Shown: positions 1,741 through 50,500 of the stretch, one piece after another
Layout of the letters: each line of letters begins with the position of its first letter
Numbering within the stretch: the stretch's first letter is position 1
Origin: Owenia fusiformis
Taxonomy: Eukaryota
Assembly (NCBI GenBank): GCA_903813345.2
Contig: CAIIXF020000001.1
Location: 8,184,001-8,248,000 of the forward strand
Direction of reading: 5' to 3'
Length of the DNA stretch: 64,000 nt
Notes under the pieces: generated by a model
Told to the model about the DNA's origin: nothing
Databases searched by the model: none
What the model saw: only the letters and a program-made list of their open reading frames with translations
Translations under genes and position numbers: made by a program

Positions 1741-4700
1741 TCAAACACATCCACAAAGAATCTCAGATCGACGTTCTTCAAATGTGTTCTGGAGGATTGA
1801 GAGATCTTGGTCTGCATCTAATACCTGAAATCACATGTAATTTCATAATAATTCATATTTTGCATTCAATCAAAGATATAAGGACGGTCAATAGATGGTG
1901 AAAAATTCAGTGGGCTTAATTGTTTACTTAAACATGTAAAAATCTCATAAGAAAATATCCAATTCATAAATAAAACATGTTATTAAATAATTTACAAGAA
2001 AATCAGATAGCGATTTGATTTATCTAACTGTTTTAAAGACAGCAGTGCTTACACATAAACCAATGGGACGGGTGTGAAGAGCCATCCACAACTAGAGAAA
2101 ATTAGTGAACTGCCATCTATTCAAGTCTTAGTTCCCATTGATTCATTTTAATGGAACAATATTTGATATACAGTAGTGAATGAGTACATACCAATACAGG
2201 GCAGGGGGGCTTGAACTCTCCTGATCCTACCAACCAATCTTCATGAAGTTCATGGAGACTCTCAAGATATTCCTGCAAAAAATTGTCTATGTTAATCTAA
2301 AGATTTTAACTTTACAATGAAACAAGCAACACCAAGGTGTACAAAATTTCATACAAGGCATTACATGACAAAATGTCACCACAGTTGCTCACAATATTAT
2401 GAGTTCAATCTTAGTCAGATTTGAATTTCTGAGAACTTTTAGATGATTTTGAAAAAATAATGTCGTCAATTTGAAGTTTAGAGCAGCAAGTTGAAAAAAT
2501 ACTCTTGTTGACCCTGAGAAGGTTATTGAAGGTGAAATCTCAAATCTTAAGTCAGATATGAACTTTTGAGAACTTGTAGATGATTCTGAAAAAATTGGTC
2601 AATTTGAAGCAAGTTGAACAACCTTTTTGACTTTGGAAAGGTCAAATCTTAAATATAAAGTCAGACTTGAACTTCTAAAAACTTGTAGATGATTTTGAAA
2701 AAAATTGAAGTCAGTCTAAACATATTTGTTAAGTTATTGGAATTGTAAGAATTTGTTGCAGACGCCAATCGCCAACCATCATAAAAGAAAATGGAGACAA
2801 TAACAATATGTCACCACTTTTTGGTGGTGACATAAAATGTTAAGTGGCAGACAAGTTGGTAGCAATATTGAATTCCAGAATCCTAAACTATACTTGACCC
2901 ACCCTAGTGGACAATACATTTTTGTACTTTCATATGTAGTAGTTCTAGCTTGCATCAATTAATATTTCTATTCTATATACTATTTATTAGTGCTTACCAA
3001 TGGCACATTGCACTCCTCAGATCTGTTTCTTAACTTGATTCTCTCCATACAGGTTTCAGGACTTGCTTGGAGGTATACTAGAATAAAATAAATAAAATAC
3101 ACTTCATATATGGAAGCAAAATAAGAAACATCTATTATCTTTATGATAAATTTTTATGTATTTTTTAATACTGCTCAAAATTTATTAGCCAACTTGCCCT
3201 AGTAGGCTGGATGATCAAAGTTATTATAAACAGTACATTGCCCTGGCTCATTTATAGAACTATAGTATACAATGGTATTCAAAAGAAACTGGGTGCAAAA
3301 GTAACATACCTATGAGATCTAAATCTAAGTTTTGTGTAGATTTACACCAGTCAAACCACTCTGACAACACTGCATAATCTACAGGGGGCATGTTTCCACT
3401 CTTGTACAGGTTCTCAACAAAACAGTACTTGGAACTGTAGATAGAACGCTCAATAAGCTTTACTGGCTTCGTCTAAAAGAAAAGAACTCTTATAAATGAA
3501 TTTATAGAGAAAGTCAGTAATTGCTGTTTTATGTATTTTTGTGAATGTGAAATGGAATAAAGTAGTCCTTTCACTACAAAAGGATTCTGCTGGGATCCCC
3601 TTAAAGTGTTATATTTAAGGAATAAATAATGATAGGCCATTCAATATGGTGAAATTCAGCACAAGACAAGTTGGACAAAATGTCGTACAAAGCACGAACT
3701 GAACGTATTGAACTATACCGACGTTCTGTCCAACGAGTGAAGAATTTCCAAATATTGAATGGCCTGTCATTATTTATTCTGATTGGTAGAGAAACCCAAT
3801 TAGAGCACGGTCATGTTTGAATATTGAATATATATTCAAATAGCTTTAACAGAATATTAAAGTTGCAAAATAAAACCTTAGTTAAAATACCAGCCACAAG
3901 AATGCTTATCCTGCACTGCTTAATTCTTGAATACTAATACTTTTAGAACTCACATGTTTTTTACAGTGTACTTGTAGCATGGTAAGCTGTACATATGACT
4001 GGAATGTAAGGCTCCACCTATGGGCATCCTTGTACATTAATTCCTGCAATGAGAACAAACAATGTTCTACAGCACGCAATAAACTCAAAGTAATTTTAGT
4101 TTTCATTTGTAAACAATGCTTTTGTCTAATCTTAGCTGGTATAAAATGCTATAATACAATTATTGTAAAGCATGTCTATATGATTGGAACACCTTATATT
4201 GTGTGGGCCATCATTGTTTCTTGTAGACAGACATCCCTTACAGAAAGGATTCACTAACACTACACTTAAACCATGGGCTTTCAAGAGAAGGGTATGCAAG
4301 TCTGTTATAAACACTAGAACTTCAAATGAGCAGTGCCATGCTTCACTTTTTTGATAATATTTCAAAGAGTTTTAGATGAATGTCTACGTTTTAGTATTAT
4401 TTTGAATATGATTATAATGAATTCCATTTTATATTAAATTATCAACTGTTTGCAGATGATCATGTTTTTATTTTTGAGTTATTTCTTAAATCATACATGA
4501 AAAGTATAAAATAAGATTTTTCTTAGAATTTGTACAGGAAGTATTTTTTCTCCGATTTTGAAAACCTAAGACAAGACTTATGAAATATGGGAAGTTGCAT
4601 ACCCTTCTGTTGAGTTCTTTTGTTCGCTAAGTGACATATCTTTCAATATAAACATTGCATATCTGAACTTACTAGAGTATTGTGGCCTCTCACACTTTTC

Positions 4701-6523
4701 CACATATGTATGGGCTCAAGGATTACCTACAAAAACAATATGATGGAATATGTTCAATGGTGGGCAATTTTCACAAATCTTCCCAGTTGTCCAATACAAT
4801 TTTAAACTCCAGATTACTGGAAGAGTATTTATTGATAAAACACTGTATTATTGTACCAATTTAATTTGTATTTATACTTTTTCAAAAAATTAGATAAAAA
4901 CTATCAGTGCTTACCTCAACATTTTTAGAATCCTGAAAATGATTAAGGAATGTACTCTTTCCACTTCCAATGTTACCTTCGACAGATACCTATAAAATAA
5001 AATAAGTCCATTTATTGTCAAATCTCCCTCCCTGTTGTGCTTAAAGTCCCTGTGTAATGTTTGAAAATATGTTTTTATCATTCAATTACTATTTGTCATG
5101 ACTTTAAAAAAAAATGTAGAGATTTTATGAAAAAAAATTGTCAGCTTTTCATTTCTCAAGTATTCAAATTTCCAACCATTTTCCAAAAACAAAATTCCAC
5201 CATACATTTCAAAAAAGATTATCTTTTTAACACCTATGCAAAGATTGGACAATGGACATACTATTTCAATAATAAAATGCCATATCTAATGTGCCACTTA
5301 CTGTTTTAGCATATCAAAAATATTTCGCAACCTGAGACAGTGATGTCATTGATGAATCACTCAGGTGGCAAAAAAAATTCGATCTTTTCTGAATATGCTA
5401 AACTTCGAGAATAAACCAATGTTGATTGTCTAACCAGCTTAAAATGTAGAATATATTATGTTTTAGATATTATTGTACCATTGGTTTCTATGAGAACTAA
5501 AATTTTGAAATGCATTTTTCTCTGAACCATTTTCATCGATTGATGAGTTCATTTCTCGCTTATTTATGAACCGATTTTCTTAATTTTTTAAATATGCATA
5601 TTACATACTTCTAAGAAGTGACATATTTTATACTCTTAATTTATTGGCACACGCATTTACACGAAGTCCTTTACAAGAAGTAACGTCATTTCTAAGAAGT
5701 TGAATTTCAAGGCGGAGTTCAAACCACTCCTTGAATTGACTTAAAACTGAAAACATCCTGTTCTATTCATGAAGGGGCTTTTTTCTCTCGAAATCCCATG
5801 TTGAGTCGACACACACACACAAAATGATTCGATTTTAGGCTAAGATCAATTTACATGTACTTACTGTAAACTTCTTGTTTCCATTATCTGGCAGTACACA
5901 TGTATCAAAGTTGTTGAATGTGAATGCTAGAAAATAAAATAACAAAACATTTTAATTTGAATGTAGGCTATGCATTGCAATATTTAGACTTGGAAAAGGA
6001 CATTATGCCAGACTGTCTTCAAATGATGGAAAATCTCCTATGTGTATGGGCAACGGATAATGGGAAGTTCTCCATACTGACCTATAGATAACATGGGGGG
6101 CTTCTGTTCCACGGTTATGGGAAGCCCTCCATATATTACTTATATTATACCTCCTAGATGGAGGACTTCCCACTATCCGTGTTCTGTTCACTATGTTATG
6201 TGTCCCTGAAACTCCCATTTGTGCAAGGAATCTTGCTGCATCTTTAGATTGATTCTAGTAAAAATCCAAGACATGATATTGTCCATACATTTTCATCATC
6301 TTAGATCACAGGATCAAGTATTATCAAAATAAAATCGAATATGAATGTACTCGCTAAGAGAAGTCGAGGAGAAGCCTGCCAGTCCTAATATGAAATTCAA
6401 ATCTGATGCATTTCGATTTTGAATTTTCTGTCTTTTGTTTTTCTATTTTCATTTCAAACTCAAAAATCAAGAAAAATACTCACTATTCCTGTTGCCAGTC
6501 CTGAAATTACTGTTCCCCAACAT
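1741..6523 (-). CDS. TK2: Deoxynucleoside kinase, TK2 / Drosophila dNK-like; 9 coding exons, 242 aa
   Basis: Exons (-): 6523-6484 (tentative first), 5926-5865, 4989-4915, 4726-4673, 4043-3954, 3472-3310, 3077-2998, 2272-2192, 1824-1741. All introns are GT-AG with consistent phases; 729 nt. Protein has P-loop VEGNIGSGKST, EP..MW, LMY.DAHRWSLTFQSYVQLTML, ERSIYS, DLIVYLQASPETCMERIKLRNRSEE (lid) and YLESLHELHEDWL. Exon 1 is the least certain. Confidence 0.92.
2354..2838 (+). mobile_element. Non-autonomous Helentron/HINE-like element (short copy of the family at 20565-22240)
   Basis: Same 5' end (ACAAGGCATT.ACATGACAAAATGTCACC), about 3 degenerate core monomers and the 3' hairpin ATGTCACCAC-loop-GTGGTGACAT followed by A-run. 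A 3' remnant also lies at about 340-424. Confidence 0.65.
3620..3780. repeat. Long imperfect palindrome (hairpin element) in a TK2 intron
   Basis: GAATAAATAATGATAGGCCATTCAATAT... pairs with ...ATATTGAATGGCCTGTCATTATTTATTC; inner arms GTTGGACAAAATGTCG / CGACGTTCTGTCCAAC. Confidence 0.65.
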
Positions 6524-6645
6524 TGTTTGCTCTTTACTGACTACTTTTCCGGAGATTAAATTGGGTAAAAATAGAATTTCTGGAAAAAAATTCAGGAAGG
6601 CGGTCAATATCAGTTAGAAGTTTTCGTCAACAATAAAATTCGTAT

Positions 6646-9313: not shown

Positions 9314-12300
9314 CTAACTTGTGGAACGAGGACGCTGTTGTTTTCTCTCATTCTGGGTTGTAGCCATAGTTCCATATGTTCCTGAAAATATATCAATTCC
9401 ATTTAAATATATCATTGAATTATACAAACTACATTATATTTGTCTTACAAGCATGTAAATGAAATTATATATGCATGGGTTTCAAGAGCAAATTGTTTTC
9501 CACGTGAATTAATTGACATGATATATCATTGAAAAATTGAGGGTGTCATTTTGTTTTGTTTATTCAGTCAGTAGACTATTCTTGAAAACAATGCCCTCTT
9601 TTCTAAAACCAAAGAAGCAAAAACATATTGGCTAGATTCATGATGTTATACGTTGCAAGTAGCATTGATCCATGATGTCATTGGTTGCAGGTAGCATTGA
9701 TTCACGATGTCACAGGTTGCAAGTAGCATTAATCCATGATGTCAGGTTGCAGGTAGCATTGATCCATGATGTCATAGGTTGCAGGCAGCATTAATCCATG
9801 ATGTCACAGGTTGCAGGTAGCATTGATCCATGATGTCATAGGTTGCAGGCAGCATTAATCCATGATGTCATAGGTTGCAGATAGCATTGATCCATGATGT
9901 CATAGGTTGCAGGTAGCATTGATCCATGATGTCACAGGTTGCAAGTAGCATTAATCCATGATGTCAGGTTGCAGGTAGCATTGATCCATGATGTCATAGG
10001 TTGCAGATAGCATTGATCCATGATGTCATAGGTTGCAGGTAGCATTGATCCATGATGTCACAGGTTGCAAGTAGCATTAATCCATGATGTCAGGTTGCAG
10101 GTAGCATTGATCCATGATGTCATAGGTTGCAGGCAGCATTAATCCATGATGTCACAGGTTCCAGGTAGCATTGATCCATGATGTCATAGGTTGCAGGCAG
10201 CATTAATCCATGATGTCATAGGTTGTAGATAGCATTGATCCATGATGTCACAGGTTGCAAGTAGCATTAATCCATGATGTCAGGTTGCAGGTAGCATTGA
10301 TCCATGATGTCATAGGTTGCAAGTAGCATTAATCCATGATGTCAGGTTGCAGGTAGCATTGATCCATGATGTCAGGTTGCAGGTAGCATTGATCCATGAT
10401 GTCATAGGTTGCAGATAGCATTGATCCATGATGTCATAGGTTGCAGGTAGCATTGATCCATGATGTCACAGGCTGCAAGTAGCATTGTCTCGGAAGCAAG
10501 AATAGGATTAACTTATAGCTAACTCTGGAAGACCTTTTTGAATTTTGTTTGTAAACATGACATCATGGATGTCATCTTGCTTCACAACAACTATAAACTG
10601 TGACATAATGGATCTGGCCAATATATTTCTTTAGTGTAGTAAGAGATGGTAGGGTTTATAATCTACAGGGTGTCAAATAAATATGTCCATTGAAACTTCT
10701 TGTGAAGTTGATCCATGAAGCCATATTTGAATGTGATAAAGGAAAATTCAGATATCATGCAGACAAAAAGGTTATGCAACCTTGTGTGGATGTTAAAGCT
10801 AAGATGGAAGAACATATTTATTTGACACCCTGTAGTTTATTGTAAAGGTATATTATCTTCTAGAGATATCAAGGTGAAGTACTAGTTGGAGCAACTGAAT
10901 CCTACTGAATTAAGATTGCATATTCACATTAAAAAGTAAAAAATACTTGCTCAATATCATTTTTGCATTGAAAGATTCATCTACAAAATCATATAATCTC
11001 TATACATTTCCCCATGGGCTAATTGAAAGCCCATGGTTTCCTATAATTTAATTTCAATTCTTTATACAAGAGCTTATTCCCAATGATTTCGTTGCTCTTA
11101 GCTTATATGATCTTATTTTTAAATCAAGTATAGCAAATTGCATCAAATGAACAATAACTACAGTGATCAAAGAAATTTTTTGAATATCAATGAGATAAAA
11201 CAAATGCTTACCAACAACATTACTAGCATAACTTGTCTGACTTTGACCTGACCCCCTTCGTCGTATTTCAAAATTTCTGGGTGCTGACCTCTGTGAGCCA
11301 ATTGTTTGAGACAAAATCGACGCAAAAAACACAAAACTAAGTAGCATCTGAAAAGTAAAAATAGATATTGAGACAAGGCTTGTTTGTTATGTTTTTTCAT
11401 ACTATTGGCTGTATCTATAGATATCCCTGCGTTCATCACATTTAATTGAGCAAAAATACAATATTCTATATTATCTGTATAAAATTTCCTAGTTTTTAGT
11501 AAATACCAAAATAAGTTCTCTAATTGTTACAACAAACAGTAAAAATGATAAAATAGCTACACATAGGCTCTATGCATCAATGCATGCTATATGTACATAA
11601 AAGTACATGATATATGCCCCGCTTTCTTTATATGAACCATGAATCATTGCCCTGTCTTATGTCATAACCCTGTCTTTTGAGATTTTTACCTGTAGAGAGA
11701 CGAAAATATAGTTGTACCATTCTTTAGGGGTTATATTGCACGAACCTGAAATAAAACAAAAATACCTATATCTGCAATTCCTTATACCAAAATTAGAAGA
11801 AATATATTATCATTAAAGACTAATGGTTTTGGGCCAATATAAAGAAGGCATCTTTATTACAGATCTATTTTTATCGCCCTTTTCAATGTTAAAGACAATG
11901 TTGCAGCCTCAGTAAATCCTTTTTTGAGATGTTGATCACTGATGGAAGAATGTCAAACGATTAGTGACATGTGACAATGACCAATCTTAAAGTATACAAA
12001 CTTGTAAAGGATTTACATGAACATGCATCTAAATAATACCACCTTTGTAGCGACTCTTTTCAAGGGTCTCCTCTTTAAAATACACTAATTAACAGACTGC
12101 AATTTTACCAATTTATACCATTGTCAGACTTTGATACAACACCCTCCTAAATATATTAAAGCTCACTTAGAAGCAGCAAAATATGTGCAAATTGTGCAAA
12201 CGCCTCTTAACTCATTGCTGACCAACCACGATATATCTCATCTATGATGTCATAATCATATCTAACCAATCCAGAGATATCCCGGGTGCTGTACAATAAT

Positions 12301-15300
12301 TGTCACACAATTTGTACCAATAATCTTCCGAAATATTGTACGGGTCACAAGGGGAATACCGTTGGGTGCAATTGAAATATATTGTCAGCAGCTTCACAAT
12401 GGCATAAAACTCAGTACAGAGGGTGTTGATACAGTCCATTAATTTAAATGCTATATGAAAACATGCCATTTTAATAAATTTTTCATCAAAATGGCCAGTC
12501 ACAAGTAGAAAACCTAAAAAATACTTTTGACAAGCAATGAGTTAATATTTCTGTTTCAGTGTATTTGATGATCAGATCTATTTGTGTGTAAAAAGAAAAC
12601 ATACCACACAAAGTTGCAGTAGAGACTGACAGGTAGAACATCTTCAGGTAGAGTTCTATAACTAATACAGGATCAACATACAGATCCTCACTGATGAACT
12701 TCCAACTGCTTTTCTAAAATATATGTGATGTCATAATATAATACAATGTCGTTATTTAAAATGAAACTTATATCATTAAATGGCAATTTTTACAAAGTTA
12801 AAATTTTAATATGTTATTTTATTTGTCATGCACATAACAGTACATTTATAACAATGGTCTCAAGGAGCATGTAAGTGGCAGTGTACATACAAAATAGCTC
12901 AACTGTAGCCTAGTTAGTTGCAGAATACGATAAAACATGTACAATCCAAATGGAACTAGACTGGCTTAACTTGTAAGGATTGGCAGGTGTTTACATTTCA
13001 AGGCTTTTTATCATGGATTTCTTTTGTAGATTTAAAAATGAGACCAAGAATTGTCTTCATATTAGAGAGGTGTTCGGATATACAGGTTTTACTGTACATA
13101 CAAAATAGCTCATGTGTAGTTCATAAGTTGCAGTATACATTCCCAATAGCTCACCTGTAGCCTATAAGTTGCAGTATATATGCCAGCAAATAATAACAAG
13201 GCAGCAAGGTAAGACTGCGCAAGCAGCCAATTGTTTACCTCATTCGAGAATATCTGTTCGGTTAACTTTCCTTGAAAGAAAAAATCTTGAATCAGAGGTA
13301 TATGAAATCAGATGTAACCTACTGAACTATAACTATATATAGTATAACCCCTCTTCTCATTCGTCCTTCTCAATTAGCTTAGCAGATCTGAGGTGTCAAA
13401 TTCAATCCAGAAGCTTTGAACTCTTTCATGTTATCTAAGGTAATTAAATATTGTTTAAATGTAAACATGTTTAGAACTTTGACATTGACAATTAATAGCA
13501 TACAGTGCTCTCATGCAACTTATTTGGACATTAAAAACTATGAGCTCTATGTTCTATATTTGCAGACTTTGAGGCAGTTGAAACTCCGGATCAGGAGTGG
13601 AAATTAGCCGGAACATTATTGCTAGTTAAATAAAAACAGAATTATGTGATGAGTGTAACAATATCACAAGCACTTGGTCTGCAGAAAGATCTATGTCAGT
13701 TTTGGTTTCTATTTATAGTTGAAAAGTGTTCCACTAACAGAGTAAGAGGCCTAGAGGTGTTATTCCACTTAACAGATTTCACTGTAAATCGAGAGACCAC
13801 TACTGTCATCTTTCTTTATTGATCAAGTCTGTATGATTACAATGTAGATTACAAGTTTTGTAGAAATGATGTTGCTCTAACCTGAAGTAGCTATGAGTAT
13901 AACTAGATTAATGCACTGGAGAGTAATCATCACAATCACACTCTGAAAATAAACAACTGTATTGTGAATTACAGCATCAATATTTTTCTGATTTTTGAAA
14001 ATTTGTGAAAAATGAAGTATATTTCACCATGGGCTTTCAACTAGAATGATATACATGCTTTTTTAATTTCCTGTACGTCCCAGATTGGTAATGCATGCCC
14101 TAGTAGATACTGAGGCCTATTAAAAATGCACTAACAGTACAACTTAAGTCTTAGTGGAATACCTTTAATACCTCTAAATGGTGTTCCACTCGGGAGGTGT
14201 TCCACTTATAGAGGTTCATTTAAGAGTCAGTTGGTCTTGGGACTATGAAAAGTGTTCAACTAGCGGATGTTTAACTTATAGAGGTAATTAGACACGGGAT
14301 GGAATGCTCTGTGAGCAAAACATCATTGAATGGTATCTTTTACAAAACATCAAAAGAGAATAATTGAGATACTTACAGCATAGAAACTGTGAGATATCGC
14401 TGCATCTTCCTCCTTTGTTGGCCACAGGTCTATCACTGTCAACACTGTTAAGTTCAATGCCTGCATGGGAAACAAACAGAAAAACATGTCGTTTAAAGAG
14501 AGTTGTTGTGGTAGGAAAGCACAATTAAGACCCTCTGTTTTTGCATATTGAGCCGTACCACATATTCACATATCTGCTTACTTATGAAGAAGCGCCAAAT
14601 GTGCTGCTTTATGTGCTAATTTTGCGATTGTGCTGACTGGTCAAAACTTGAATAAACCGGAGAAATCCATATGTAATCTGATTGGTCGTTAAATTTGTTT
14701 ATCAGTATGATATGGTAACGTGACCAAAGAAACTCTGTGAATGGCAGTTATGGAAATTCTAAAAGAAATTAACAAATGGCTTTGAAATTAATTGGCTGCC
14801 TGGCTCAAGGCATGTACCCAGGTGCCGAAGCGCATGTTCTCGTGTCACTTGACAAGGTTTTCCCCCACTTGCCCCGATTGAACATAGTTGTGTTCAATTC
14901 TGACAGTTGGTTGTTCTGTTGATTTCCTCAATATATCTGCAATACTATACCCATACGTTGGTCTCTAGATCCGATATCTAAGGTATGTAGGCAATTTTAA
15001 TGGGAAATCATTGATTGTCCGGGAGAGAAACCTATTATATGGCCATGGCATACTGTATCTTTAGCATGAGTTGAAAGTAAAGCCTGTTAAAGTGAAACAC
15101 CTTTAGCACATTTAAATTATCTTCTATTTGGAAGGTGTTCCACTTACAAATGTACATATAATATAAAGTTGATAGAACACACAGATTTTTGAAAAATGTT
15201 CCACTTATGTGTAAAGCTTCCAATACCTCAGTTTTTAGCTATTTTACAAATTGTATTTTGATAATTTCACTAGTGATTTTCAAGTCGCCCCAAATTGTAA

Positions 15301-18300
15301 CAATCAATTTTAAACTGTAAACTATGAAAGTTGTCACATAGTACAAGTTGGTGTAATGATTCAGTTCATGTACCTGAAGAATGACTGTTATGATGAAGAG
15401 GTTGTCCAAAAGTTTGACAGGAACGGTCCATGTGCAACAGGACCTGCATCTTCTACATAGTTGAGATCTCCCCTCACTAGTAGACTGTCGTCGATTGGCA
15501 ACTTGGACCTGCACATCATATTATGCATTTGTTTTATACTTTGACATGAATAACACATGTAAGCAACTTATACACTGCATGTATCTGTTTATAATTATAA
15601 ACAATGTATTGAGATATTGTCTATTATATGATGAACAATAAATTAAAGGATTTAAGCCCAGTGCTCAATGAACTGTCAGTGATTTTAAGCATGAGGGTCT
15701 TGTATGAGACTTTGAATGACACGGTCTCCGATACTACCCATCGTAAATCGTTCCGGACTTGTTTTTCATAACCATTTGGACTCATTTCGGTAGGAGAATG
15801 AGATGAGACATTCACCAGAATGGCTCAAAAATGTAATATAATTCAATCGTTTAGAAAAATACATACGCTAACTTCTACTTAAAACCTTCTTTTTCATACC
15901 CACATATCTAATTTGGCGATCGTGCCATCATAGTTCATATTTATCGGCATTAAATAACAGAAATGCCAGAAATATGCTCTAAATCTGCATTATTGTCATT
16001 TAACTATGTTTAAACAAAAAAGTCATTTATAACGTGGAACAATATTCTCTACATTAAAGATCGTGTTAATATTTTAACTATCTGTACCTTCAAATTTCCA
16101 TAAATGACCGTAATGTAAAAAGTGGAGTTAACGACGGCGAATGGTCCTTATTCTGACACGGACTTGTCTTATAATCACTAGGTGAACGACTGCGAATTGT
16201 GCACAACGTGATAAAAAATAACGATTAGGAATTGTCTTGTAATGGTATTTATACGTTCCATTGTTTGATGAATTGTCTATGCTTCTGGAATAATTGGATT
16301 TAGTATGATTATGTTTTAGAGGAGTTTTTGTACGAAATATTCACAGATTTTGTAATTTCAGTTCCCAGAAACAAGTGCCACGAATGTACTTTTAAAAGTG
16401 CAGATAAAAATATATTCTTTGAACACTTCAAGAGGGACCATCCCTCCGATTTATTCAGGCTTGACGTCCCTTTTCGCGATAAAGGCACATGGCGTTACAA
16501 AACACTGGATTATGGATTCCGGATGTGTGATAAATTAGGCTCAAGGCTGTCATTTGATGATGGCACCTCGATATAGGAGGAAGAATACGTTGAACCCAGT
16601 CCTCTTCAGAAGCGCATGCGATTCAAGGCCATGTGTCAAATAAAAAAGATGATGGAATCCATGTATATGCGGGCATAGATCGTATTTCGGCGATCGATGG
16701 TGTTTCTATATATTCTTTTCAAAATACATTTGGGGCTAATATTATTATTGTAAGTTTACAGCAAATCCTGTCTTAGGCGACACATCTCTCGTATTAAAAA
16801 GAGTCAAAACCCAGGCCATTTAAAAGAGGCGACGCTGAGCTTTTTGAACGTATTTAGTGCATTGGAAGTTAAGGGGAAAGTCTAAAGAAGAATCCGAGGC
16901 AAAAACCTGCATGCAGTGAGGCAAATTATGAAATTATAACAAATAATAATGAATCAAATTGTTAATAATCTAGGGGCAAACCAGTAGATTTTTAACAGTA
17001 AATAACGATTAAAACTAATTATTTCTTCTCAACTTTCACTAAACTTCTTGCTTAGCATTAATATAAGCATGGAAGTCAGTTTGAAGCCAATAAGATGGTT
17101 TTAAAGTCTTATTCGAGGCAAACTTATGCTCACATTTTTTCATAGACAAATTGAAAATAGCGACGAGTGAAGTCTTTAAAAAAGCGAAGAGGCAAAACAC
17201 AAGAACAAGTAAAAAAATCAACTTTTCTCTCTACATACATTCTTGCCCCTTGAAAGTATCAAGTAACGAACATGTATCTGTAATGATTCCCTAATTCAAC
17301 CTTGACAAGTATCTCTTAATACGTTTAATTAATGATGATCATTTAGATAGTATCACTCAGACAACTTCTTCCACTATTTTGTTGGAAATCTATAAAGTTT
17401 ATTGAGCTGTTCCACACTTAAAAATGGTTCATTGTGTTCTACAAGTCAGAAACGTTCCAATAACACAAGTCAGAAACGTTCCAATAACAAGTCAACATCA
17501 TTAACTGGAATATTTAGGTCACGTCCAAATGGTTAAATCTAAAAAATATTCTTTCGACAATTGCTACTCATTTAAACCATTTTAAATCATGATTTTCCTT
17601 CACAATATGGCTACTTTCATTATAAATCGGTGTATTCATTGGATACAAGGCAGGCTGGTGATTATCAGGCAAAATAGGTGAAAACACTTGCAGAATCGCT
17701 CACATCCCGAAATAACAAGACTATAGCAAACGGTTCGTACAAAAAGGCGTTTGCGTGTGCCTGAAGATAGGGTATATAGTATGGTAAGTTATCTAATTGT
17801 GTTATAATTTATATAAAGTCAAGTGAAAGCAAGTTCATGACCAGATTTACAAACCTACCTCTACTTTTTTCCATAAATCAAGTCCAAATGGTTATGAAAA
17901 ACAAGTCCGGAACGATTTACGTTGGGTAGTATCGGAGACCGTGAATGAGGGTAGTAGCACAAATTCAAAGGCTAGCATACAAGACACAACTGCATTTAAT
18001 CACCCGCAATTCTATTCATATGTAGCAAACGATTTTGTACGTCATCATTTAAAGAATGAAATTCAACCAGTAATTGCCTTCTTGGCTGTTCATTATGATT
18101 GCAGGATGTGTTCTGATTGGCTGGAAGGTGACAAACACTATTTGATAAATATTTAATACCTATATAATACCTCTTCTTGATAGGGCTTGAGATGTTGTCT
18201 GTTAATATAATGGCAAACAATATATTGAAGCAGACACTATTTGTATAAAGTAAATATGACAATACCTCAGCTAGATAGGTCTTGAGAAGGTCAGTGCTGT

Positions 18301-21300
18301 CCTCGAGATTGCGAATAAGATACTGTACTTGTTGAGGAGATAATTTGTAACCCATATCTTCATTGTTTACACTGAAATAATAAACAAAGGCATTATATTA
18401 ATAAACATTTTATTAATCATAGTAATTATTTAATTATTTCTCTTCATCATATTAGTAATGAGTAAACATTGTAACAAAATTTACTAACAAGTGACTATTC
18501 TTAGGTACATGTAGCTGCTTGAGATTTAGACATTAAGAATCTAAATATGAGAGGTTCAAGGTCAAATATTAGTTTCATAATTAAAGTTTAGATTTATAGG
18601 TCAAAAGTATGAAAGGCCATATGTCGAGGTATGGGTTTTGTAAATTAAGATTCTGATGCATTTTGAGTGATTTAAACATTTTGCTATACATCATCAAAGC
18701 GTTGAAATATATATAATTTGCAAACGTTTGACATCCTCTTTTTCTCTTGAAAAAAATTTAAGCAATCATTTTATAAAATATACCAACATATTTTAAGGTA
18801 GGCCTACCATATGTTTTTTACATGTATATAAACATGTATACAAACCATGCGTAGCTTATATTTGGTCCAGTATAATATGCCATCTTCTAAAACTCTATTC
18901 CCAGAGCCATCTAATCTACATTGCCTTTAAAAATGAATTTATTACTTTTCAAATAAATTCAAGAAGAATATAACATGCAAACTATAGAAAGTTATACCTT
19001 CAGTTTATTGAAGAACAGTTTTCTATTGTTTGTCCGATGATAAAGTTTGTCTCCAAAAGTCAAAACATAGATAAGAATGATAATAGCAAATATATAATGA
19101 CACAGTTATCAAATGACCTACTGTGAAGGACCTACTATGTTAATATGCATTTGAGGGATTTATAATTTTGTTCCATATAGATTTAAAATCAGAGACATTA
19201 TTTCAGAGGTTAAAAATCAGTTTTCCAATAAACACATAGTGCCAAAAATTGGTTTCATTGTGGGCCATAATTTATAGAACAAGTTGATATAGAATTAAAA
19301 GGGTAAAACTCTATCTCAAGCTTGTGAGAGCTACATTGTATTCCGAGGGATAGTAGAGACTGTAGATCCCAAAATGAGTAAAACATGTTAAAATGAAAGG
19401 TTTTAAAAAGCATCTTTATAGCTCAAACCTATAATGTATTGTCTTTAATAAAGCAACCTCTTTTGTGACCAAAAAGTAATAAATACCGCTACACTGTTTT
19501 GTTTGGATAAAATCTAAAGGATTACAAGGGCCACACCTTTAAAATTTATTGCCAAGGCTATGAACTAAAGTTAACATTTGGAAGACCAGACCCCATTATC
19601 TGAAACCAATACACAGTTGATATTAACAGTTGCCCAATACATAGTAAGAGAAGTTTCTGATGACATTACAACAAGATGAGGTAGTAATTAATACCTTTTC
19701 CACCTGCTTGGTTTGGCAATACCAAATATGCATGCACTGTTCACTATAGTATTCACGGAAAATAGGTACCTTTAGAATGTTGCCCTTTGTTTGACTAATT
19801 AACTTGTTACATGAAGAAACAATATAGAAGAACCCTATCCATGTTGAGCAGTGGGAAAGTCCACGCTTCTATGGCTTCTATCACAGGACATACATGTAGT
19901 CAACACTATCTATCCCTCACCAGGTATAGAACATTCTTCTATGTATAATAGGATAGATGGTGCTGAGTAAAGTGCTGATTGTGGTCATGGATTTACTGAA
20001 ATGGTCTGGAAACTCTTGTCTGGCCATATTGTACCATATTTTGTCAGACCGAGATATCGTAAAGTACAAAATGTATGTCGATGGATATGCACAAATAGTA
20101 TCATTTGAAAGCTTATCATGACTATTGTAATGTGCATAAGGTACATTACATGGAATGCATGTATATTTCCCACAATATGGTGTGTACAGTTGGGGACAAA
20201 AATAAATGACAGGTCGATTTTCGATCACCATTTCCTAATTATGGTCGTCTGAAAGCCCATAATTTCCAATATTGTCTAGATACATATCCCTTAAAATTTG
20301 TATATTTCACATTTTGTATAATCTCATCCACTGATGTATGGCCTCTTGAAAATTCTCTTATTTTTAACATGGGAAATTCTCACTTCAGCAAATCCACCTG
20401 TCATTTATTTATGTCCCGAACTGTATTGAGTATTGAACTACAAAAAGTGAATTTCATCAAAATTTTCAAAATACTGTAGTAGTCAAGTCTAATAATATTT
20501 TCCGTTTTGTGTACTTTCTCAGTTAATTATACAAAGGATATGCGTTACCTTAACATCTTTTTAGACAAGGCATTAACATGACAAAATGTCACCACCTAGT
20601 TGCTCACAATATTATGAGTTCAAACTTAAGTCAGATTTGAATTTCTGAGAACTTGTAAAGTCAAATTTGAACTTCTGAAAAGATGTAGATGATTTTGAAA
20701 AAAAATTTGGTCAATTTGAAGCAAGTTGAAAACAGACCTTTTTGACCTTTTTTGACCTTGAGAAGGTCATTAAAGGTCAAATGTCAAATCTAAAGTCAGA
20801 TTTGAATTTCTGAGAACATGTAGATGATTTTGAAAAAAAAAAATTAGTCAATTTGAAGCAAGTTGAAAAAAGACCTTTTTGACCTTGAGAAGGTCATTGA
20901 AGGTCAAATGTCAAATCTAAAGTCAAATCTAAAGTCATATTTGAATTTCTGAGAACACGTAGATGATTTTGAAAAAATTTTTAGTCAATTTGAAGCAAGA
21001 TGAAAAAATACCTTTTTGACCTTTTTGGACATTGAGAAGGTCATTGGAGGTCAAATGTCAAATCTAAAGTCAGATTTGAATTTCTGAGAACATGTAGATG
21101 ATTTTGAAAAAATTTTTAGTCAATTTGAAGCAAGTTGAAAAAAGACGTTTTTGACCTTTTTTGACTTTGAGAAGGTCATTGAAGGTCAAATGTCAAATCT
21201 TAAGTCAAATCTAAAGTCAGATTTGAATTTCTGAGAACACGTAGATGATTTTGAAAAATTTTTTTAGTCAATTTGAAGCAAGTTGAAAACAGACCTTTTT

Positions 21301-22510
21301 GACCTTTTTTGACCTTGAGAAGGTCATTGAAGGTCAAATGTCAAATCTAAAGTCAGATTTGAATTTCTGAGAACATGTAGATGATTTTGAAAAAAAAATT
21401 AGTCAATTTGAAGCAAGTTGAAAAAAGACCTTATTGACCTTTTTTGACCTTGAGAAGGTCATTGAAGGTCAAATGTCAAATCTAAAGTCATATTTGAATT
21501 TCTGAGAACATGTAGATGATTTTGAAAAAAAAATTTAGTCAATTTGAAGCAAGTTGAAAAAAGACCTTTTTGACCTTTTTTGACTTTGAGAAGGTCATTG
21601 AAGGTCAAATGTCAAATCTTAAGTCAAATCTAAAGTCAGATTTGAATTTCTGAGAACACGTAGATGATTTTGAAAAAAATTTTAAGTCAATTTGAAGCAA
21701 GTTGAAAACAGACCTTTTTGACCTTTTTTGACCTTGAGAAGGTCATAGAAGGTCAAATGTCAAATCTTAAGTCAGATTTGAATTTCTGAGAACACGTAGA
21801 TGATTTTGAAAAAAAAAATTAGTCAATTTGAAGCAAGTTGAAAACAGACCTTTTTGACCTTTTTGAACTTGAGAAGGTCATTGAAGGTCAAATGTCAAAT
21901 CTTAAGTCAGATTTGAAGGTCAAATGTCAAATCTAAAGTCAGATTTGAATTTCTGAGAACATGTAGATGATTTTGAAAAAAAATTTAGTCAATGTGAAAA
22001 AAAACCTTTTTGACCTTGAGAAGGTCATTGAAGGTCAAATGTCAAATCTAAAGTCAGATTTGAACTTCTGAGAACATGTAGATGATTTAGAAAAAAATTG
22101 AAGTCAGTCTAAACAGTATTTGTTAAGTTATAGGAAGTTGTAAGAAATTGTTACAGACGCCAACCGCCGGACGCCAACCGCCGTCGCAAAAAAACGGAGA
22201 CCATAACAATATGTCACCACTTTTGGTGGTGACATAAAAATGACAGGTGTCTGTAAATAATTGACATGTTAATTTTTAATTTTGGTAAGATGGCCACTTT
22301 GACATTTGACTCTTCAGAAATTCAGTCTACTAAGTAGATCTACTCTTGTCTACAAAAACATGTACACTCTTTGACATACAGATATTTTCATAAGTAATTT
22401 ACTGAACACACTCACCTATAAAATATTGAATTGCCCGTCCGAATACCACCAAGAAGATCACTTTCTTCCTCTGTGTAGTCCCACGCCAATTCATTTCCTC
22501 CATCTGCCAT
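9314..22510 (-). CDS. Pore-loop (KcsA / Ion_trans_2-like) ion channel-like membrane protein with non-canonical filter; 10 exons, 321 aa
   Basis: Exons (-): 22510-22416, 18371-18266, 15508-15374, 14460-14377, 13942-13882, 13270-13155, 12713-12605, 11745-11690, 11347-11212, 9381-9314. All GT-AG, phases consistent, 966 nt ATG to TAG. Four hydrophobic segments; between the last two lies FYLSVSTATLCGSCNITPKEW, which aligns with KcsA WWSVETATTVGYGDLYP. Confidence 0.82.
9637..10487. repeat. 32-bp (30-32) minisatellite, about 27 copies, in the last intron of the channel gene
   Basis: Head-to-tail unit GGTTGCAGGTAGCATTGATCCATGATGTCATA with no unique spacers. Confidence 0.95.
10666..10832. mobile_element. 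Tc1/mariner-like MITE
   Basis: TIR CAGGGTGTCAAATAAAT / ATTTATTTGACACCCTG flanked by TA on both sides. Confidence 0.7.
15720..17943 (+). mobile_element. 2.2-kb DNA transposon relic with CAC...GTG TIRs and 5-bp TSD (Transib/RAG-like ends); decayed C2H2-finger ORF inside
   Basis: About 63-bp near-perfect TIRs (CACGGTCTCCGATACTACCCA.CGTAAATCGTTCCGGACTTGTTTTTCATAACCATTTGGACT); TSD AATGA at 15715-15719 and 17944-17948. Internal frame 16328-16576 encodes CHEC-x12-HFKRDH and is cut by a stop. Lies in intron 2 of the channel gene. Confidence 0.8.
20187..20423 (+). mobile_element. Tc1/mariner-like MITE, 237 bp (copy 1)
   Basis: TIR CAGTTGGGGACAAAAATAAATGACAGGT with TA flanks; near-identical copy at 47674-47910. 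Confidence 0.8.
20565..22240 (+). mobile_element. Helentron/HINE-like element carrying an array of ~135-bp satellite monomers (about 11 copies)
   Basis: Monomer contains TAGATGATTTTGAAAAAA...GACCTTGAGAAGGTCATTGAAGGTCAAATGTCAAATCTAAAGTCAGATTTGAATTTCTGAGAAC. Element ends in GACGCCAACCGCC repeats, hairpin ATGTCACCAC/GTGGTGACAT and an A-run. Confidence 0.75.
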
Positions 22511-30074: not shown

Positions 30075-31370
30075 CTAATATATCACACATCTACTCAATA
30101 CTTCACATTTAAACCCTGAGGCTAATGTACCTACTTCATGTATCATACATCTACTCAATACTTCACATTTCAACCCTGAGGCTAATGTACATACTTCATG
30201 TATCATACATCTACTCAATACTTCACATTTCAACCCTGAGGCTAATGTACATACTTCATGTATCATACATCCACTCAATACTTGACCTTTCAACCCTGAG
30301 GCTAATGTACTTACTTCATGTATCATACATCCACTCAATCCTTGACCTTTCAACACTGAGGCTAATGTACTTACTTCATATATCATACATCCACTCAATC
30401 CTTGACCTTTCAACACTGAGGCTAATGTACTTACTCAATGTATCATACATCTACTCAATATTTGATCTTTCAAATCTGAGGTTAATGTACTTACTCAATG
30501 TATCAAACATCTACTCAATACTTGACCTTTCAACCCTGAGGCTAATGTACATTCTTCATGTATCATAAATCCACTCAATCCTCGACCTTTCAACTCTGAG
30601 GCTTAGGTACTTACTCAATGTATCATACATCCACTCAATCCTTGACCTTTCAACCCTGAGGCTAATGTACATTCTTCATGTATCATAAATCCACTCAATC
30701 CTCGACCTTTCAACTCTGAGGCTTAGGTACTTACTCAATGTATCATACATCTACTCAATATTTGATCTTTCAAATGTGAGGTTAATGTACTTACTCAATG
30801 TATCATACATCTACTCAATACTTGACCTTTCAACCCTGAGTTAATGTACATACTTCATGTATCATACATCTACTCGATACTTGACCATTCAACCCTGAGG
30901 CTAATGTACATACTCAATGTATCAATACATCTACTCAATACTTCCCATTTCAACCCTGAGGCTAATGTACAAACTGTATATATCATACATCCACTCAATA
31001 CTTGACCTTTCAACTCTGAGGCTACTGTACATACTCAATGTATCATACATCTACTCAATACTTGACTGTATTAAAAACCCTGAGTCTGATGTACATATTT
31101 CATGTATCATCTACATTCCATCTACTCAAATCTTGACTTCCAGCCCTAAGGCTATTGTATATACATCATGCAGCATACATCTACTCAATACTTGACTTCC
31201 AGCCTTGGGTCAATTGTACATACTTTGTGTATTATAAATCTACTCAATACTTGACTTTTCAACCCTGAGGCTAATTTACATGACTCGTGAATCATGCAGC
31301 TACTCAATACCTGACTTCACAGCCCCGAGGCTAATGTATGCATTTCATGTAACAAACATCTTCTCAATAC
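30075..31370. repeat. 60-bp minisatellite, about 21 copies, decaying to the right
   Basis: Unit GCTAATGTACTTACTTCATGTATCATACATCTACTCAATACTTGACCTTTCAACCCTGAG, visible as line-to-line identity; it generates the periodic ORFs at 30075-31195. Confidence 0.95.
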
Positions 31371-34966: not shown

Positions 34967-43070
<8,104 letters not shown>

Positions 43071-47531: not shown

Positions 47532-50500
47532 ATGTGTGAAGCATCAGATCCAGGGCATATTGCCATAATAGATGGATCTGTCTTAGAAGGGGTAAGTAGT
47601 CTCAGTATGTAGCCATAGTGACTGTGATGTGAGAAATTCTCCACATGGTGTGGTTTATCTAAGACTATCTCTACAGTTGGGGACAAAAATAAATGACAGG
47701 TCGATTTTCGATCACCATTTCCTAATTATGGTGGTCTGAAAGCCCATAATTTCCAATATTGTCTAGATACATATCCCTTAAAATTTGTATATTTTACATT
47801 TTGTATAATCTCATCCACTGATTCATGGCCTCTTGTAAATTCTCTTATTTTTAACATGGGAAATCCTCACTTCAGCAAATCCACCTGTCATTTATTTATG
47901 TCCCCAACTATACGTTCTAAACGAAGAGGGGGACAAGATAAGGTGTGGGTGCTACTTAGGTGCTATCTATTGCAAGACTTAGACACATGCTATCTATTCC
48001 AAGACGTATGCCTGGCACAACCGTCACCAAGTTATTGGTAACAACTAACAATGTTCTTGAATGAGATTAGAATTATAGTTTGTGGAAATGAATTATGAGT
48101 TAAAGTAGTAGTACATGTAGTAGTAGTCTAGATTTACATATTAAGAAAGATAAACGATGACATTTTTCATTACAGATGTCAATTAATATAACTTAACATT
48201 ACCACGGTCATGTCAGGCCTTGCAATATAGTATAGCATTGTTACGGTCATATCAGGCTTTAACATTACCACAGTCATGACAGGCCATGCAATGTACAATA
48301 TAGCATTGTTACGGTTATATCAGGCTATCATGATAACACTACCACAGTCATGGCAGGATCCTTGAGAAACTTAAAAACACTTAATAACATGGTGACGGTT
48401 GTGCCAGGCATTAGTCTTGCAACAGATAGGGTCTCGACTTAGACTTATGCCTGGCACCATGTTATCAGTGATCAGTGTTTTTATTAAGTTGTGCAAGGAT
48501 CCTGTCATGACCCTGGTATTGTTATCGTGAGATTATTTTTTAAATGTTGGTTCAAATTGCATTCTATTCATCACTGTTAACTATATATCTGCTTTAAAGA
48601 TTCTCGCAATCTTTATCCAATCAGCGTTTGCGAGTGTGTCGGTTCACGTATAAAAGGCGAATCCAACTCAAATCCATGCAGGGGTGTATGAGGTACTCGA
48701 ATAGGAAAGAGCTCGTGAAATCTGAATTTATATACACATGGTCAATGTTTACACATGTTTGAAGTTATTGAAGAAAATGTGATATGGGTGTGGTTCCGAA
48801 TTTGAAGTCATTGCTGGAAAATATGATTTTAATAAGTGAAATTATATCTATAAATACAGCACTAAAAATAACAGTACACATGAAGTACATGTATGATTGT
48901 GTTCAGAAATGTTTGAAACCCTTACGGAAAATTCTGTCTGCATTTTGTCACCATTGCTCTTTCTTCCCGCATTCTAGTACTGTTTGAATGAATATATTAA
49001 TTAATGTATTTCTAACTAAAATATATCACATTTTTTTTATAAACCACAAACATTTAGATCATAAAAAAAATATTCAATACTTGAGTGAGCACGATATGCA
49101 AGGGTTACTAAGTTGACACAGTAAATGACCACTGATATTGTGTTAGTCCATGCAAACAGCGTATTCTGCTAAGGCAATAAGAAGTAGATTCTTTGCTTTG
49201 CGTCCCCTTGCTTGCACGATTTTGAGTACATGTAAATCAGAAAAAACAAACACATCAAAATAGCAATCATAAGGGTCTGAAAGTACCATTACATTTCGTT
49301 CAATCAGAATCAGACGAAATGGCGGATAATTTGATGTGCGTCAAAATTGACAGTGTTATAATTATTTTGGCATACATTGTGTATTTTCTTATTTTTTACC
49401 CTTGAAGTTTAAATATATTGTATAAAATGTATAGGTATGTGTTTGTAATCACTGCAAATTGGTATGTCATCCCTTTTTATGCCCATAAAATGTATACATT
49501 TCTCAGCAAACAAGTTTGTGTTTTTTTCTTGAGTTTGTGTTTGTTTTCCTTGTACCCTTGCATGATTTGGATTTTGCCAGGACGCAAAACAAAGAATCTA
49601 CTTCTTATGGCCTAATACACATTTGCTAACACCCCCACTTTCAAAGTGAAGTGACTAATTGGTTTATGTTTACGTTTTAATGTGTTTTGGGTTCCTTGTT
49701 ACAGCAAGGGGGGCCAGTAAAGTAGACTATGTTTGCATGGCAAGTTTTGATCGAATATGTGAGACACTTTAAATAGGCTTATTATCTCAACGAACGAAGT
49801 TCGGTAGGGATATAGTGAAGCCGTCCGTCCATCCGTCCGTCTGTCCGTCTGGAAGATAACTCAAATATTAGTTGACAGATTTTCTTCATATTTGGTGGAA
49901 AGATGTATATTGATAAATACTAGTTTAAGTTTTTTTTTCAAGATGGCCATCGCTTTAAAAATGACGGGACTTTTTCACAAAAATCATAAATTTTTCATTC
50001 TAAACCAAAGTAATTAATATTATTGTTTGAAATTTTGGTAGTATATTCGCAACATCTATCTATTTCACATATATTCTGTGTTTTTCATCCTGACCCCCAG
50101 GGGTCGTGTATGGGGGGTCAGGAAAACAGAAATTTTTGCTAATTTTTAGATCTTTCTGAAGTATACGGTGTAGCTTTATTATACTCAAATGAAAGGCAAT
50201 TGAGAGTAGATTGCAAATATTGTATCTTTTTTCTGATTCAAGCCTCGTGAAATTCAAAATGGCTGTCTAATGTACAATTTCGCAATAATTTTTCGATCCC
50301 TCCAAAGTATGGATATATAATACTCAAATTGAACGAATTTTGGAGTAGATCACAATTATGGTATTATTTTTCAGATTTGAACCTCAGAAAATTCAAAATG
50401 GCTGCTTTGCAGGAATTCGCAATTCTAAAATCTAAATTTTTCAATTTTAACCAAAGTAATGAGTATAATTGATTGGAATTCGGTAATTGATATTTTGTTC

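Follow-up and report, generated by a model that had tools for sequence, protein, structure and literature searches.

What is a protein that looks like a K+ channel around its pore loop and reads L-C-G where the selectivity filter is expected? The question is raised by a minus-strand gene (22510-9314; ten exons, 966 nt, encoding 321 aa and a TAG stop codon) in a 64,000 nt stretch of the Owenia fusiformis genome (contig CAIIXF020000001.1, positions 8,184,001 to 8,248,000), referred to below as the window. A first-pass annotation, made from the letters of the window, had described the product as a KcsA-like pore-loop channel in which the K+ filter is replaced. The analysis reported here makes it fairly probable that the protein is a subunit belonging to an unnamed branch, spread across animals, of old eukaryotic K+ channel relatives with four transmembrane helices (TM) and one pore loop (P-loop) per chain, and that these subunits form a cation pore which is not, or only weakly, selective for K+.

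Family, filter motif and relation to K+ channels

A word-based search with the exon encoding the P-loop found a public 581-aa protein, P0001 ("unnamed protein product [Owenia fusiformis]"), in which this exon is 100% identical, and P0001 was mapped back on the window to give the exon map. Residues 1-320 of P0001 retrieved ten relatives with expectation (E) values from 1e-59 to 4e-28, with eight molluscs and the sponge Halichondria among them, and all those with an organism name carry the label 'uncharacterized'. In the alignment of this group (A1), S-x-S-T-A-T-L-C-G, P242, W245-Y246 and Q-M-L-x-S-F are invariant. An exhaustive profile search of 1.84 billion representatives subsequently gave 462 matches at E<=1e-3, of which 266 had E<=1e-10 and 105 had E<=1e-30; the best 150 of these 462 and the earlier relatives, together 159 proteins, were aligned to the profile. 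They divide into 71 proteins with an L-C-G filter (here called TLCG proteins), 72 with G-[YFLM]-G-D, 7 with another sequence and 9 fragments. The 72 canonical members read T-M-T-[TS]-[TV]-G-[YF]-G-D-I-x-P, which is the textbook K+ signature, and the logo of the 71 TLCG members is S-[VI]-S-T-[AG]-T-L-C-G-[SA]-[AS]-[ND]-[IV]-x-P.

The Owenia pore helix and loop read S-V-S-T-A-T-L-C-G-S-C, with the filter at L234-C235-G236-S237-C238, so that T-L-C-G-S-C stands in place of the signature T-x-G-[YF]-G. Since Leu and Cys are each kept in 70/71 TLCG members and Gly in 71/71, followed by S/A and then A/S/D, the motif lies far beyond chance. The first-pass annotation had proposed an LCGSC filter with two cysteines and no GYG; the L-C-G core and the missing GYG hold, but the second cysteine, C238, was found in a single member, Owenia itself, the others having A, S or D. 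Because C238 is restricted to Owenia, the idea of a redox- or metal-sensitive pair of cysteines loses half its basis. An N-x-T sequon at N239 was dropped as a candidate feature, with Thr present at the relevant position in only 10/71 members. The Owenia protein has all the defining traits of the TLCG clade: four TMs, a conserved Gln in each of TM1, TM2 and TM3, L-L-F-A-G-x-Y-T, S-x-S-T-[AG]-T-L-C-G, and P-x-x-W-Y followed by Q-M-L-x-S-F. Near the C-terminus, N-Y-G-[ST]-[IMLV] is present in Owenia, scallops, Nematostella, a bryozoan and others, and any Y-x-x-hydrophobic motif was found in the tail of 21/55 members. The former resembles tyrosine-based sorting signals, and this Y-G-[ST]-hydrophobic motif hints at adaptor-mediated sorting or regulated trafficking, possibly to an endomembrane.

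The first-pass view of a K+-channel-type pore-loop protein with a replaced T-x-G-Y-G was borne out through intermediate relatives. We compared a profile of 54 TLCG proteins (A3; of 55 with a length of 240-460 aa, P0134 was left out as it falls outside the clade) with a profile of 56 of the 72 canonical proteins (A4; length 200-460 aa) using hhalign, which gave a probability of 100 and an E value of 2.2e-55 over 216 columns, covering the N-terminal helix, the four TMs and the P-loop. The canonical members in turn match PF07885 (Ion_trans_2) in 51/56 cases at E<=1e-3, and against solved structures their profile recovered 256 distinct K+ channel sequences at E<=0.01, the best being the KvLm pore (4h33, 1.2e-9), then KcsA, Kir, AKT1, KCNQ and others. 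As judged by sequence comparison, the homology of the Owenia protein to bona fide Ion_trans_2 members through these intermediates is solid, and by the same comparison the TLCG proteins share descent with the canonical-filter channels. The likeness to KcsA noted in the first pass was also recovered, the HMMER alignment showing no difference from KcsA in the SV.TAT end of the pore helix or in the spacing to the Pro.

Among the TLCG proteins, 33 have an organism name, and all of these are from animals: molluscs (21), the annelids Owenia and Ridgeia, a nemertean, Lingula, a bryozoan, Branchiostoma (3), the sponges Halichondria, Oscarella, Dysidea and Corticium, the cnidarians Nematostella and Clytia, the acoel Convolutriloba, and the chelicerates Dermacentor, Tachypleus/Limulus and Pycnogonum. 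None of the five named canonical proteins is from an animal (the choanoflagellates Microstomoeca, Choanoeca and Didymoeca, as well as Mantamonas and Ceratiomyxa), and no canonical-filter paralogue of the family was seen in any named animal. Vertebrate, insect, nematode and echinoderm names were lacking among the named matches, which leaves absence from these groups unproven as most matches are nameless. The prokaryotic affinity suggested in the first pass was not supported, since the nearest relatives are eukaryotic (choanoflagellates, Mantamonas and Ceratiomyxa) and the bacterial 4TM proteins of the Ion_trans_2/DUF1345 type are look-alikes in predicted structure alone. The choanoflagellate protein P0054 (Choanoeca flexa) combines a canonical filter with a C-terminal SH2 domain (PF00017, E 3e-6), and would be a K+ channel relative tied to phosphotyrosine signalling.

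A FastTree phylogeny of the 133 sequences with <20% core gaps (26/159 dropped) placed 54 of the 59 LCG sequences, with P0090, in one clade with a FastTree support of 1.0, and Owenia is inside it. The other five LCG sequences fall among long tandem proteins: in four of these one pore reads M-T-L-C-G-A-G-x-D, and the fifth, P0118, reads V-L-C-G-Y-G-D. Rooting on the tandem group makes a canonical clade of 49 members the sister of the animal clade, at a node with a support of just 0.20. The simplest reading of these sequences is that the filter was replaced once on the animal stem and was strongly conserved thereafter. P0090, encoded on a 1703 bp contig, stands beside Owenia in the tree with 30% identity; it has lost the filter glycine (S-S-L-S-S-P-S) and retains the helices and a C-terminal Y-G-T-M, as a further-degenerated paralogue or orthologue.

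Predicted fold and known channel architectures

Hydropathy gives four hydrophobic segments in the Owenia protein (100-125, 136-163, 176-194 and 247-271), in line with the two N-terminal, one outer and one inner helix counted in the first pass. AlphaFold2 was run on a mixed alignment (A2) of Owenia residues 1-320 with 107 of the 158 other proteins (>90% core coverage, length <460 aa), and, to control for any influence leaking in from canonical relatives, on a TLCG-only alignment of 70 sequences (A5). The first model had a mean predicted local distance difference test (pLDDT) score of 78.2 and a predicted template modelling score of 0.67, with helices at 44-76, 83-92, 98-124, 132-168, 174-198, 215-233 and 245-271; the control (pLDDT 77.7) showed the same elements. 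The re-entrant pore helix, on which the first-pass annotation had staked its reading, is present at 215-233 in both, and the predicted models contain an outer helix, this pore helix, a filter loop and an inner helix. The prediction for Owenia is a K+ channel pore module with two additional helices and a cytoplasmic N-terminal helix ahead of it.

Superposition with VIA-align matched the mixed-alignment model to hERG (Z 11.1, 5.0 Å over 160 residues), and its residues 171-274 to NaK (2q69_B, Z 9.1) with a root mean square deviation (rmsd) of 1.5 Å over 82 residues. For the control model the leading matches were AKT1 (Z 12.8, 4.9 Å over 158), hERG (Z 12.4, 4.0 Å over 130) and Eag1 (Z 12.0, 3.6 Å over 130), and 50/50 rows were tetrameric cation channels. 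Single-sequence models of P0001 and P0002 in the ESM Atlas resemble models of bacterial Ion_trans_2 and DUF1345 proteins of 132-243 aa, with template modelling scores of 0.53-0.79 by row, likenesses which may serve as leads only.

The first-pass remark that four TMs with one P-loop correspond to none of the standard Kv, Kir or K2P layouts held, as no characterised family fits. K2P channels share the four TMs and the superfamily with Owenia but have two P-loops per chain, whereas the Owenia protein matches the profile once and its models contain a single pore helix. For Kir channels, which carry a cytoplasmic Ig-like domain, no IRK (PF01007) match was found for P0001, and 2/54 TLCG members matched at E<=1 (best 0.1); in Owenia some 50 residues follow the inner helix, with pLDDT block means of 49-68. 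As regards the voltage-gated 6TM channels, there was no Ion_trans (PF00520) match, two helices precede the pore module, and the superposition of the Owenia 4TM domain on part of 6TM channels (rmsd 4-5 Å) does not demonstrate a voltage sensor.

With the 2TM modules of KcsA, NaK and KvLm, Owenia has in common the predicted outer helix, re-entrant pore helix, loop and inner helix, to which it adds two N-terminal TMs; Thr, the aromatic residue and the second Gly are missing from its filter. NaK, CNG and HCN are pore-loop channels with a truncated or altered K+ filter, and HCN1, SthK and the prokaryotic CNG channel 5v4s were among the best structural matches of the Owenia models. These channels are however 2TM, or 6TM with ligand or voltage domains, and none has Leu-Cys before the glycine; the likeness is one of fold, the sequences being unrelated beyond the superfamily level. 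The 4TM plus one P-loop layout is shared with prokaryotic 4TM subunits and DUF1345 proteins, and 3/56 canonical relatives matched DUF1345 at E<=1e-3, but the animal clade has no sequence-level link to the bacterial 4TM Ion_trans_2/DUF1345 proteins (3/54 at E<=1, best 0.026). Loukin et al. 2005 (PMC2234077) list K+ channel subunits with a 4TM layout (S1-S2-S3-P-S4) in three bacterial species as untested.

The closest comparison is with the canonical-filter protist relatives, for which the literature searched held no characterisation. They share with Owenia the length class, the N-terminal helix, W-Q in TM1, M-x-x-x-Q in TM2, Q-S-Y-L-S-T-x-L-L-F-A-G-x-Y-T, F-S-x-x-T, P-x-x-W-Y and Q-M-L-L-S. They differ in keeping T-[TS]-[TV]-G-[YF]-G-D, where the animals have T-L-C-G-[SA]-[AS]-[ND], and in five inner-helix positions, V/T/V/F/G in the protists and F/F/S/L/x in the animals.

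Proposed working of the pore and alternative explanations

In the alignment with the canonical relatives and KcsA, the filter Thr corresponds to L234 and the next Val/Thr to C235, the first Gly is kept as G236, Tyr/Phe is replaced by S237, the second Gly by A or S (C in Owenia), and Asp by N or D; in the animal clade the ancestral motif retained by the protists was probably rewritten in this way. In K+ filters, the innermost ion site depends on the Thr hydroxyl and the outermost on the second Gly. With the replacement, the Thr hydroxyl, the aromatic residue and the second glycine would be gone, and what remains, the first glycine with the carbonyls of the backbone around L234-C235-G236, would be a short carbonyl stack at most. 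As the outer half of a K+ filter cannot form, a short filter with an open outer vestibule would be expected, like that of NaK, CNG channels and single-glycine P-loops, and the pore would pass cations with little K+ selectivity.

Four subunits would be arranged around a central pore as in KcsA or NaK. An indirect hint that four pore modules are needed comes from 27 relatives which consist of tandem 4TM-1P units in one chain (8TM/2P; including P0077, P0083, P0110, P0131, P0132, P0149 and P0157), an arrangement that differs from those of K2P and fungal TOK channels. In the inner helix, the TLCG clade differs from the canonical proteins by V to F259, T to F262, V to S264, F to L266 and the loss of G269, changes that would re-tune the cavity and that indicate its co-evolution with the filter. 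That L-C-G is near-invariant from sponges to amphioxus shows the new motif to be under selection. In the canonical geometry the side chain of C235 would face the rear of the filter, away from the pore, and for this reason its invariance may reflect packing as much as chemistry.

A bolder version of this proposal, which we hold to be possible rather than probable, is that an ordinary protist 4TM K+ channel gave rise, by a single conversion when animals originated, to a new class of channel with a Leu-Cys-Gly filter ring, kept for more than half a billion years, with thiol/redox or metal gating or an unusual selectivity, and possibly acting in an endomembrane. If so, four filter-adjacent cysteines combined with a short carbonyl filter would constitute a permeation or gating property new to pore-loop channels, and the lack of named vertebrate, insect and nematode matches would explain why the class was overlooked.

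Several results weigh against a cation pore derived from K+ channels. By direct comparison, P0001 residues 1-320 match no Pfam family, with no PF07885 match at E<=10; the Owenia protein does not reach the PF07885 gathering score (22.5 bits), single exons of the gene gave no meaningful Pfam match, and just 3/54 TLCG members match PF07885 at E<=1 (best 0.058). Against solved structures the TLCG-only profile reached an E value of 0.8 at best, which is not significant; the profile of the ten relatives first retrieved (A1) was likewise not significant (best 0.2), with 24 of its 26 matches at E<=10 being K+ channels aligned at the pore helix and filter. A Foldseek search of the PDB returned no match at E<=1e-3 (best 0.026); with three exceptions the rows listed were K+ or CNG-type channels, including TRAAK, and KcsA had a target-normalised template modelling score of 0.67. 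In an unbiased VIA search of 48,161 chains, two de novo helical bundles came first (Z 10.5 and 10.0), P-loop channels filled only 26/50 rows, and all Z values were within the range common for helical proteins; the specific low-rmsd matches to the pore module were NaK-NavSulP (1.6 Å over 79 residues), KATP (2.1 Å over 95), GIRK2 (2.2 Å over 92) and GsuK (2.4 Å over 94). The fold prediction is moreover not fully independent, as AlphaFold was trained on K+ channels. Finally, one clade member, P0090, has no filter glycine, and the inner-helix changes together with the filter Leu could equally fit a hydrophobically sealed, non-conducting pore.

The last point leads to the main rival, in which the channel fold no longer conducts, being sealed by L234 and the new inner-helix phenylalanines, and the protein serves as a scaffold, sensor, regulatory protein or silent partner. 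The filter Thr to Leu change and the F259 and F262 substitutions, fixed in the clade, point in this direction, as do the survival of one of the five signature positions, the first, and the retention in P0090 of the rest of the protein. We nevertheless rate this explanation as unlikely, because L-C-G, S-x-S-T-A-T and Q-M-L-x-S-F are near-invariant across animal phyla, which is the pattern of a working pore, and because a silent subunit would lack a partner within the family, canonical paralogues being unseen in named animals.

A different alternative concerns the extent of the gene. Directly downstream lies a deoxynucleoside kinase gene, which P0001 joins to the channel-like gene (kinase part PF01712, E 6e-58, residues 374-570), and the true product could be this 581-aa fusion, a membrane-anchored kinase made by splicing from 9319 to the kinase exons. 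In P0001 the donor at 9318, GTTAGT, is indeed a good one, the acceptor at 6579 is an ag, and the frame stays open. However, a deoxynucleoside kinase domain was found in none of the 39 other family members listed with Pfam domains, 9/10 of the orthologues first retrieved are 319-332 aa long and stop shortly after the Y-G-[ST] motif, and P0090 stops 3 residues past its Y-G-T-M. In addition, unspliced exon 10 runs straight into a TAG TAG stop, and an ATG within the first kinase exon, 36 residues ahead of the kinase P-loop, would give a stand-alone kinase of about 240 aa. A fusion product is hence improbable; from the family members without the kinase domain, the lengths of the stand-alone orthologues, the end of P0090 and the ATG of the kinase exon, P0001 is probably a merge of two genes, and the public annotation of Owenia probably contains a gene-merge error here. 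The TLCG-type protein P0079 (Tachypleus tridentatus), which reads T-A-T-Q-C-G, is modelled as fused to Sec62 (PF03839, E 3e-29), possibly another merged gene model.

The conservation of the first filter glycine alone, as in single-glycine P-loops, would also suit a transporter-like protein on the model of the TrkH/KtrB/HKT class, which would carry K+ or Na+ at a slow rate, aided perhaps by a partner, instead of forming an open channel. This is very improbable, given that Pfam, solved-structure and structure searches returned no TrkH/KtrB match in sequence or fold, that there is one P-loop per chain and not four, and that the closest relatives are ordinary G-[YF]-G channels. A gene-prediction artefact or pseudogene is effectively refuted by cross-phylum conservation, many phyla holding orthologues with the same motifs. 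A frame open across ten exons with canonical borders and a confident AlphaFold2 core (10-residue pLDDT block means of 76-97 over residues 91-270) also weigh against it.

Gene structure, surroundings and significance

Mapped on the window, P0001 comprises 19 exons whose internal borders are all AG/GT; exons 1 to 10 form the channel-like gene (Table 1). Reading exon 10 through to 9314 recovers the ten-exon, 321-aa gene of the first-pass annotation, and its exons 7, 8 and 9 have ag/gt borders and join in frame across the pore helix, filter and inner helix. Contigs of four sequencing runs cover the introns, like genomic DNA of related individuals, and exon-exon joints were absent from them. The open reading frames (ORFs) of some orthologues run uninterrupted on contigs of 1.2-1.7 kb, such as P0009 (323 aa, 1461 bp) and P0017 (293 aa, 1333 bp), and given the ten exons in Owenia we infer that these short contigs are transcripts. 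The splice joins are supported by the independent public model P0001 and by uninterrupted orthologue ORFs on short contigs.

Table 1. Positions in the window of the exons of the channel-like gene, the downstream kinase gene and tandem repeats
Feature	Position	Strand	Content
Exon 1	22416..22510	-	Start codon; N-terminus M-A...L-x-W-D kept in orthologues
Exon 2	18266..18371	-	Most of the conserved cytoplasmic N-terminal helix (model residues 44-76), which aligns with canonical relatives too
Exon 3	15374..15508	-	Cys/Arg-rich linker and first half of TM1; Q112 near-invariant
Exon 4	14377..14460	-	End of TM1, short loop, start of TM2
Exon 5	13882..13942	-	TM2 core (Q149, N152)
Exon 6	13155..13270	-	TM2-TM3 linker helix and outer helix TM3 (174-198, ~13232-13158); family hallmark Q-S-Y...L-L-F-A-G-x-Y-T
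Exon 7	12605..12713	-	Turret, pore helix (215-233, ~12668-12612), L234, C235, first base of G236 (split by the exon 7/8 junction)
Exon 8	11690..11745	-	Remainder of G236, S237, C238 (Owenia-specific), N-I-T-P, start of inner helix
Exon 9	11212..11347	-	Remainder of inner helix (Q-M-L-L-S-F...) and basic cytoplasmic tail
Exon 10	9314..9381	-	C-terminal tail with Y-G-T-M; stop TAG 9316-9314; P0001 instead uses the GTTAGT donor at 9318
Deoxynucleoside kinase gene	1741..6579	-	9 exons (6579-6484 ... 1824-1741); directly downstream; joined to channel-like gene in P0001
Tandem repeat, intron 9	9635..10487		32 bp x 27; outside the coding part of the gene
Tandem repeat, intron 1	20656..22097		135 bp x 10.4

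The tandem repeat in intron 1 has a summed contig depth of tens to hundreds of thousands in the sequencing runs, and this very high depth identifies it as a high-copy repeat family of the Owenia genome. Two plus-strand ORFs (20210-20479 and 47697-48041) share near-identical first ~40 residues and represent a dispersed repeat, of which one copy is in intron 1. Elsewhere in the window, a minus-strand frame of 521 aa (37110-38675) is rich in Q, H, P and S and has a 129-aa frame upstream on the same strand (40332-40721); neither has a Pfam match, and both are probably large exons of another low-complexity gene. At 30075-30568 both strands are open across a short-period tandem repeat, the minus strand repeating V-S-T-L-A-S-x-L-K-G-Q, which looks like a minisatellite and not a gene.

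A search of the full-text literature outside subscription journals gave no description of the eukaryotic family, its LOC identifiers, a 'TLCG' filter or a function of DUF1345. The K+ channel families of animals are usually taken as fully listed, as Kv-type, KCa, Kir and K2P. If our reading is true, the superfamily has a further branch with its own architecture of four TMs and one P-loop, derived from a clear protist ancestor with G-[YF]-G-D by a single rewriting of the filter in the stem lineage of animals. The family would then offer a natural experiment on the loss and replacement of K+ selectivity, with matched canonical and TLCG pairs for filter swapping (choanoflagellate versus Nematostella, Owenia or Branchiostoma), and the named animal entries, at least 33, that were previously listed as 'uncharacterized protein' can be assigned their likely superfamily and fold.

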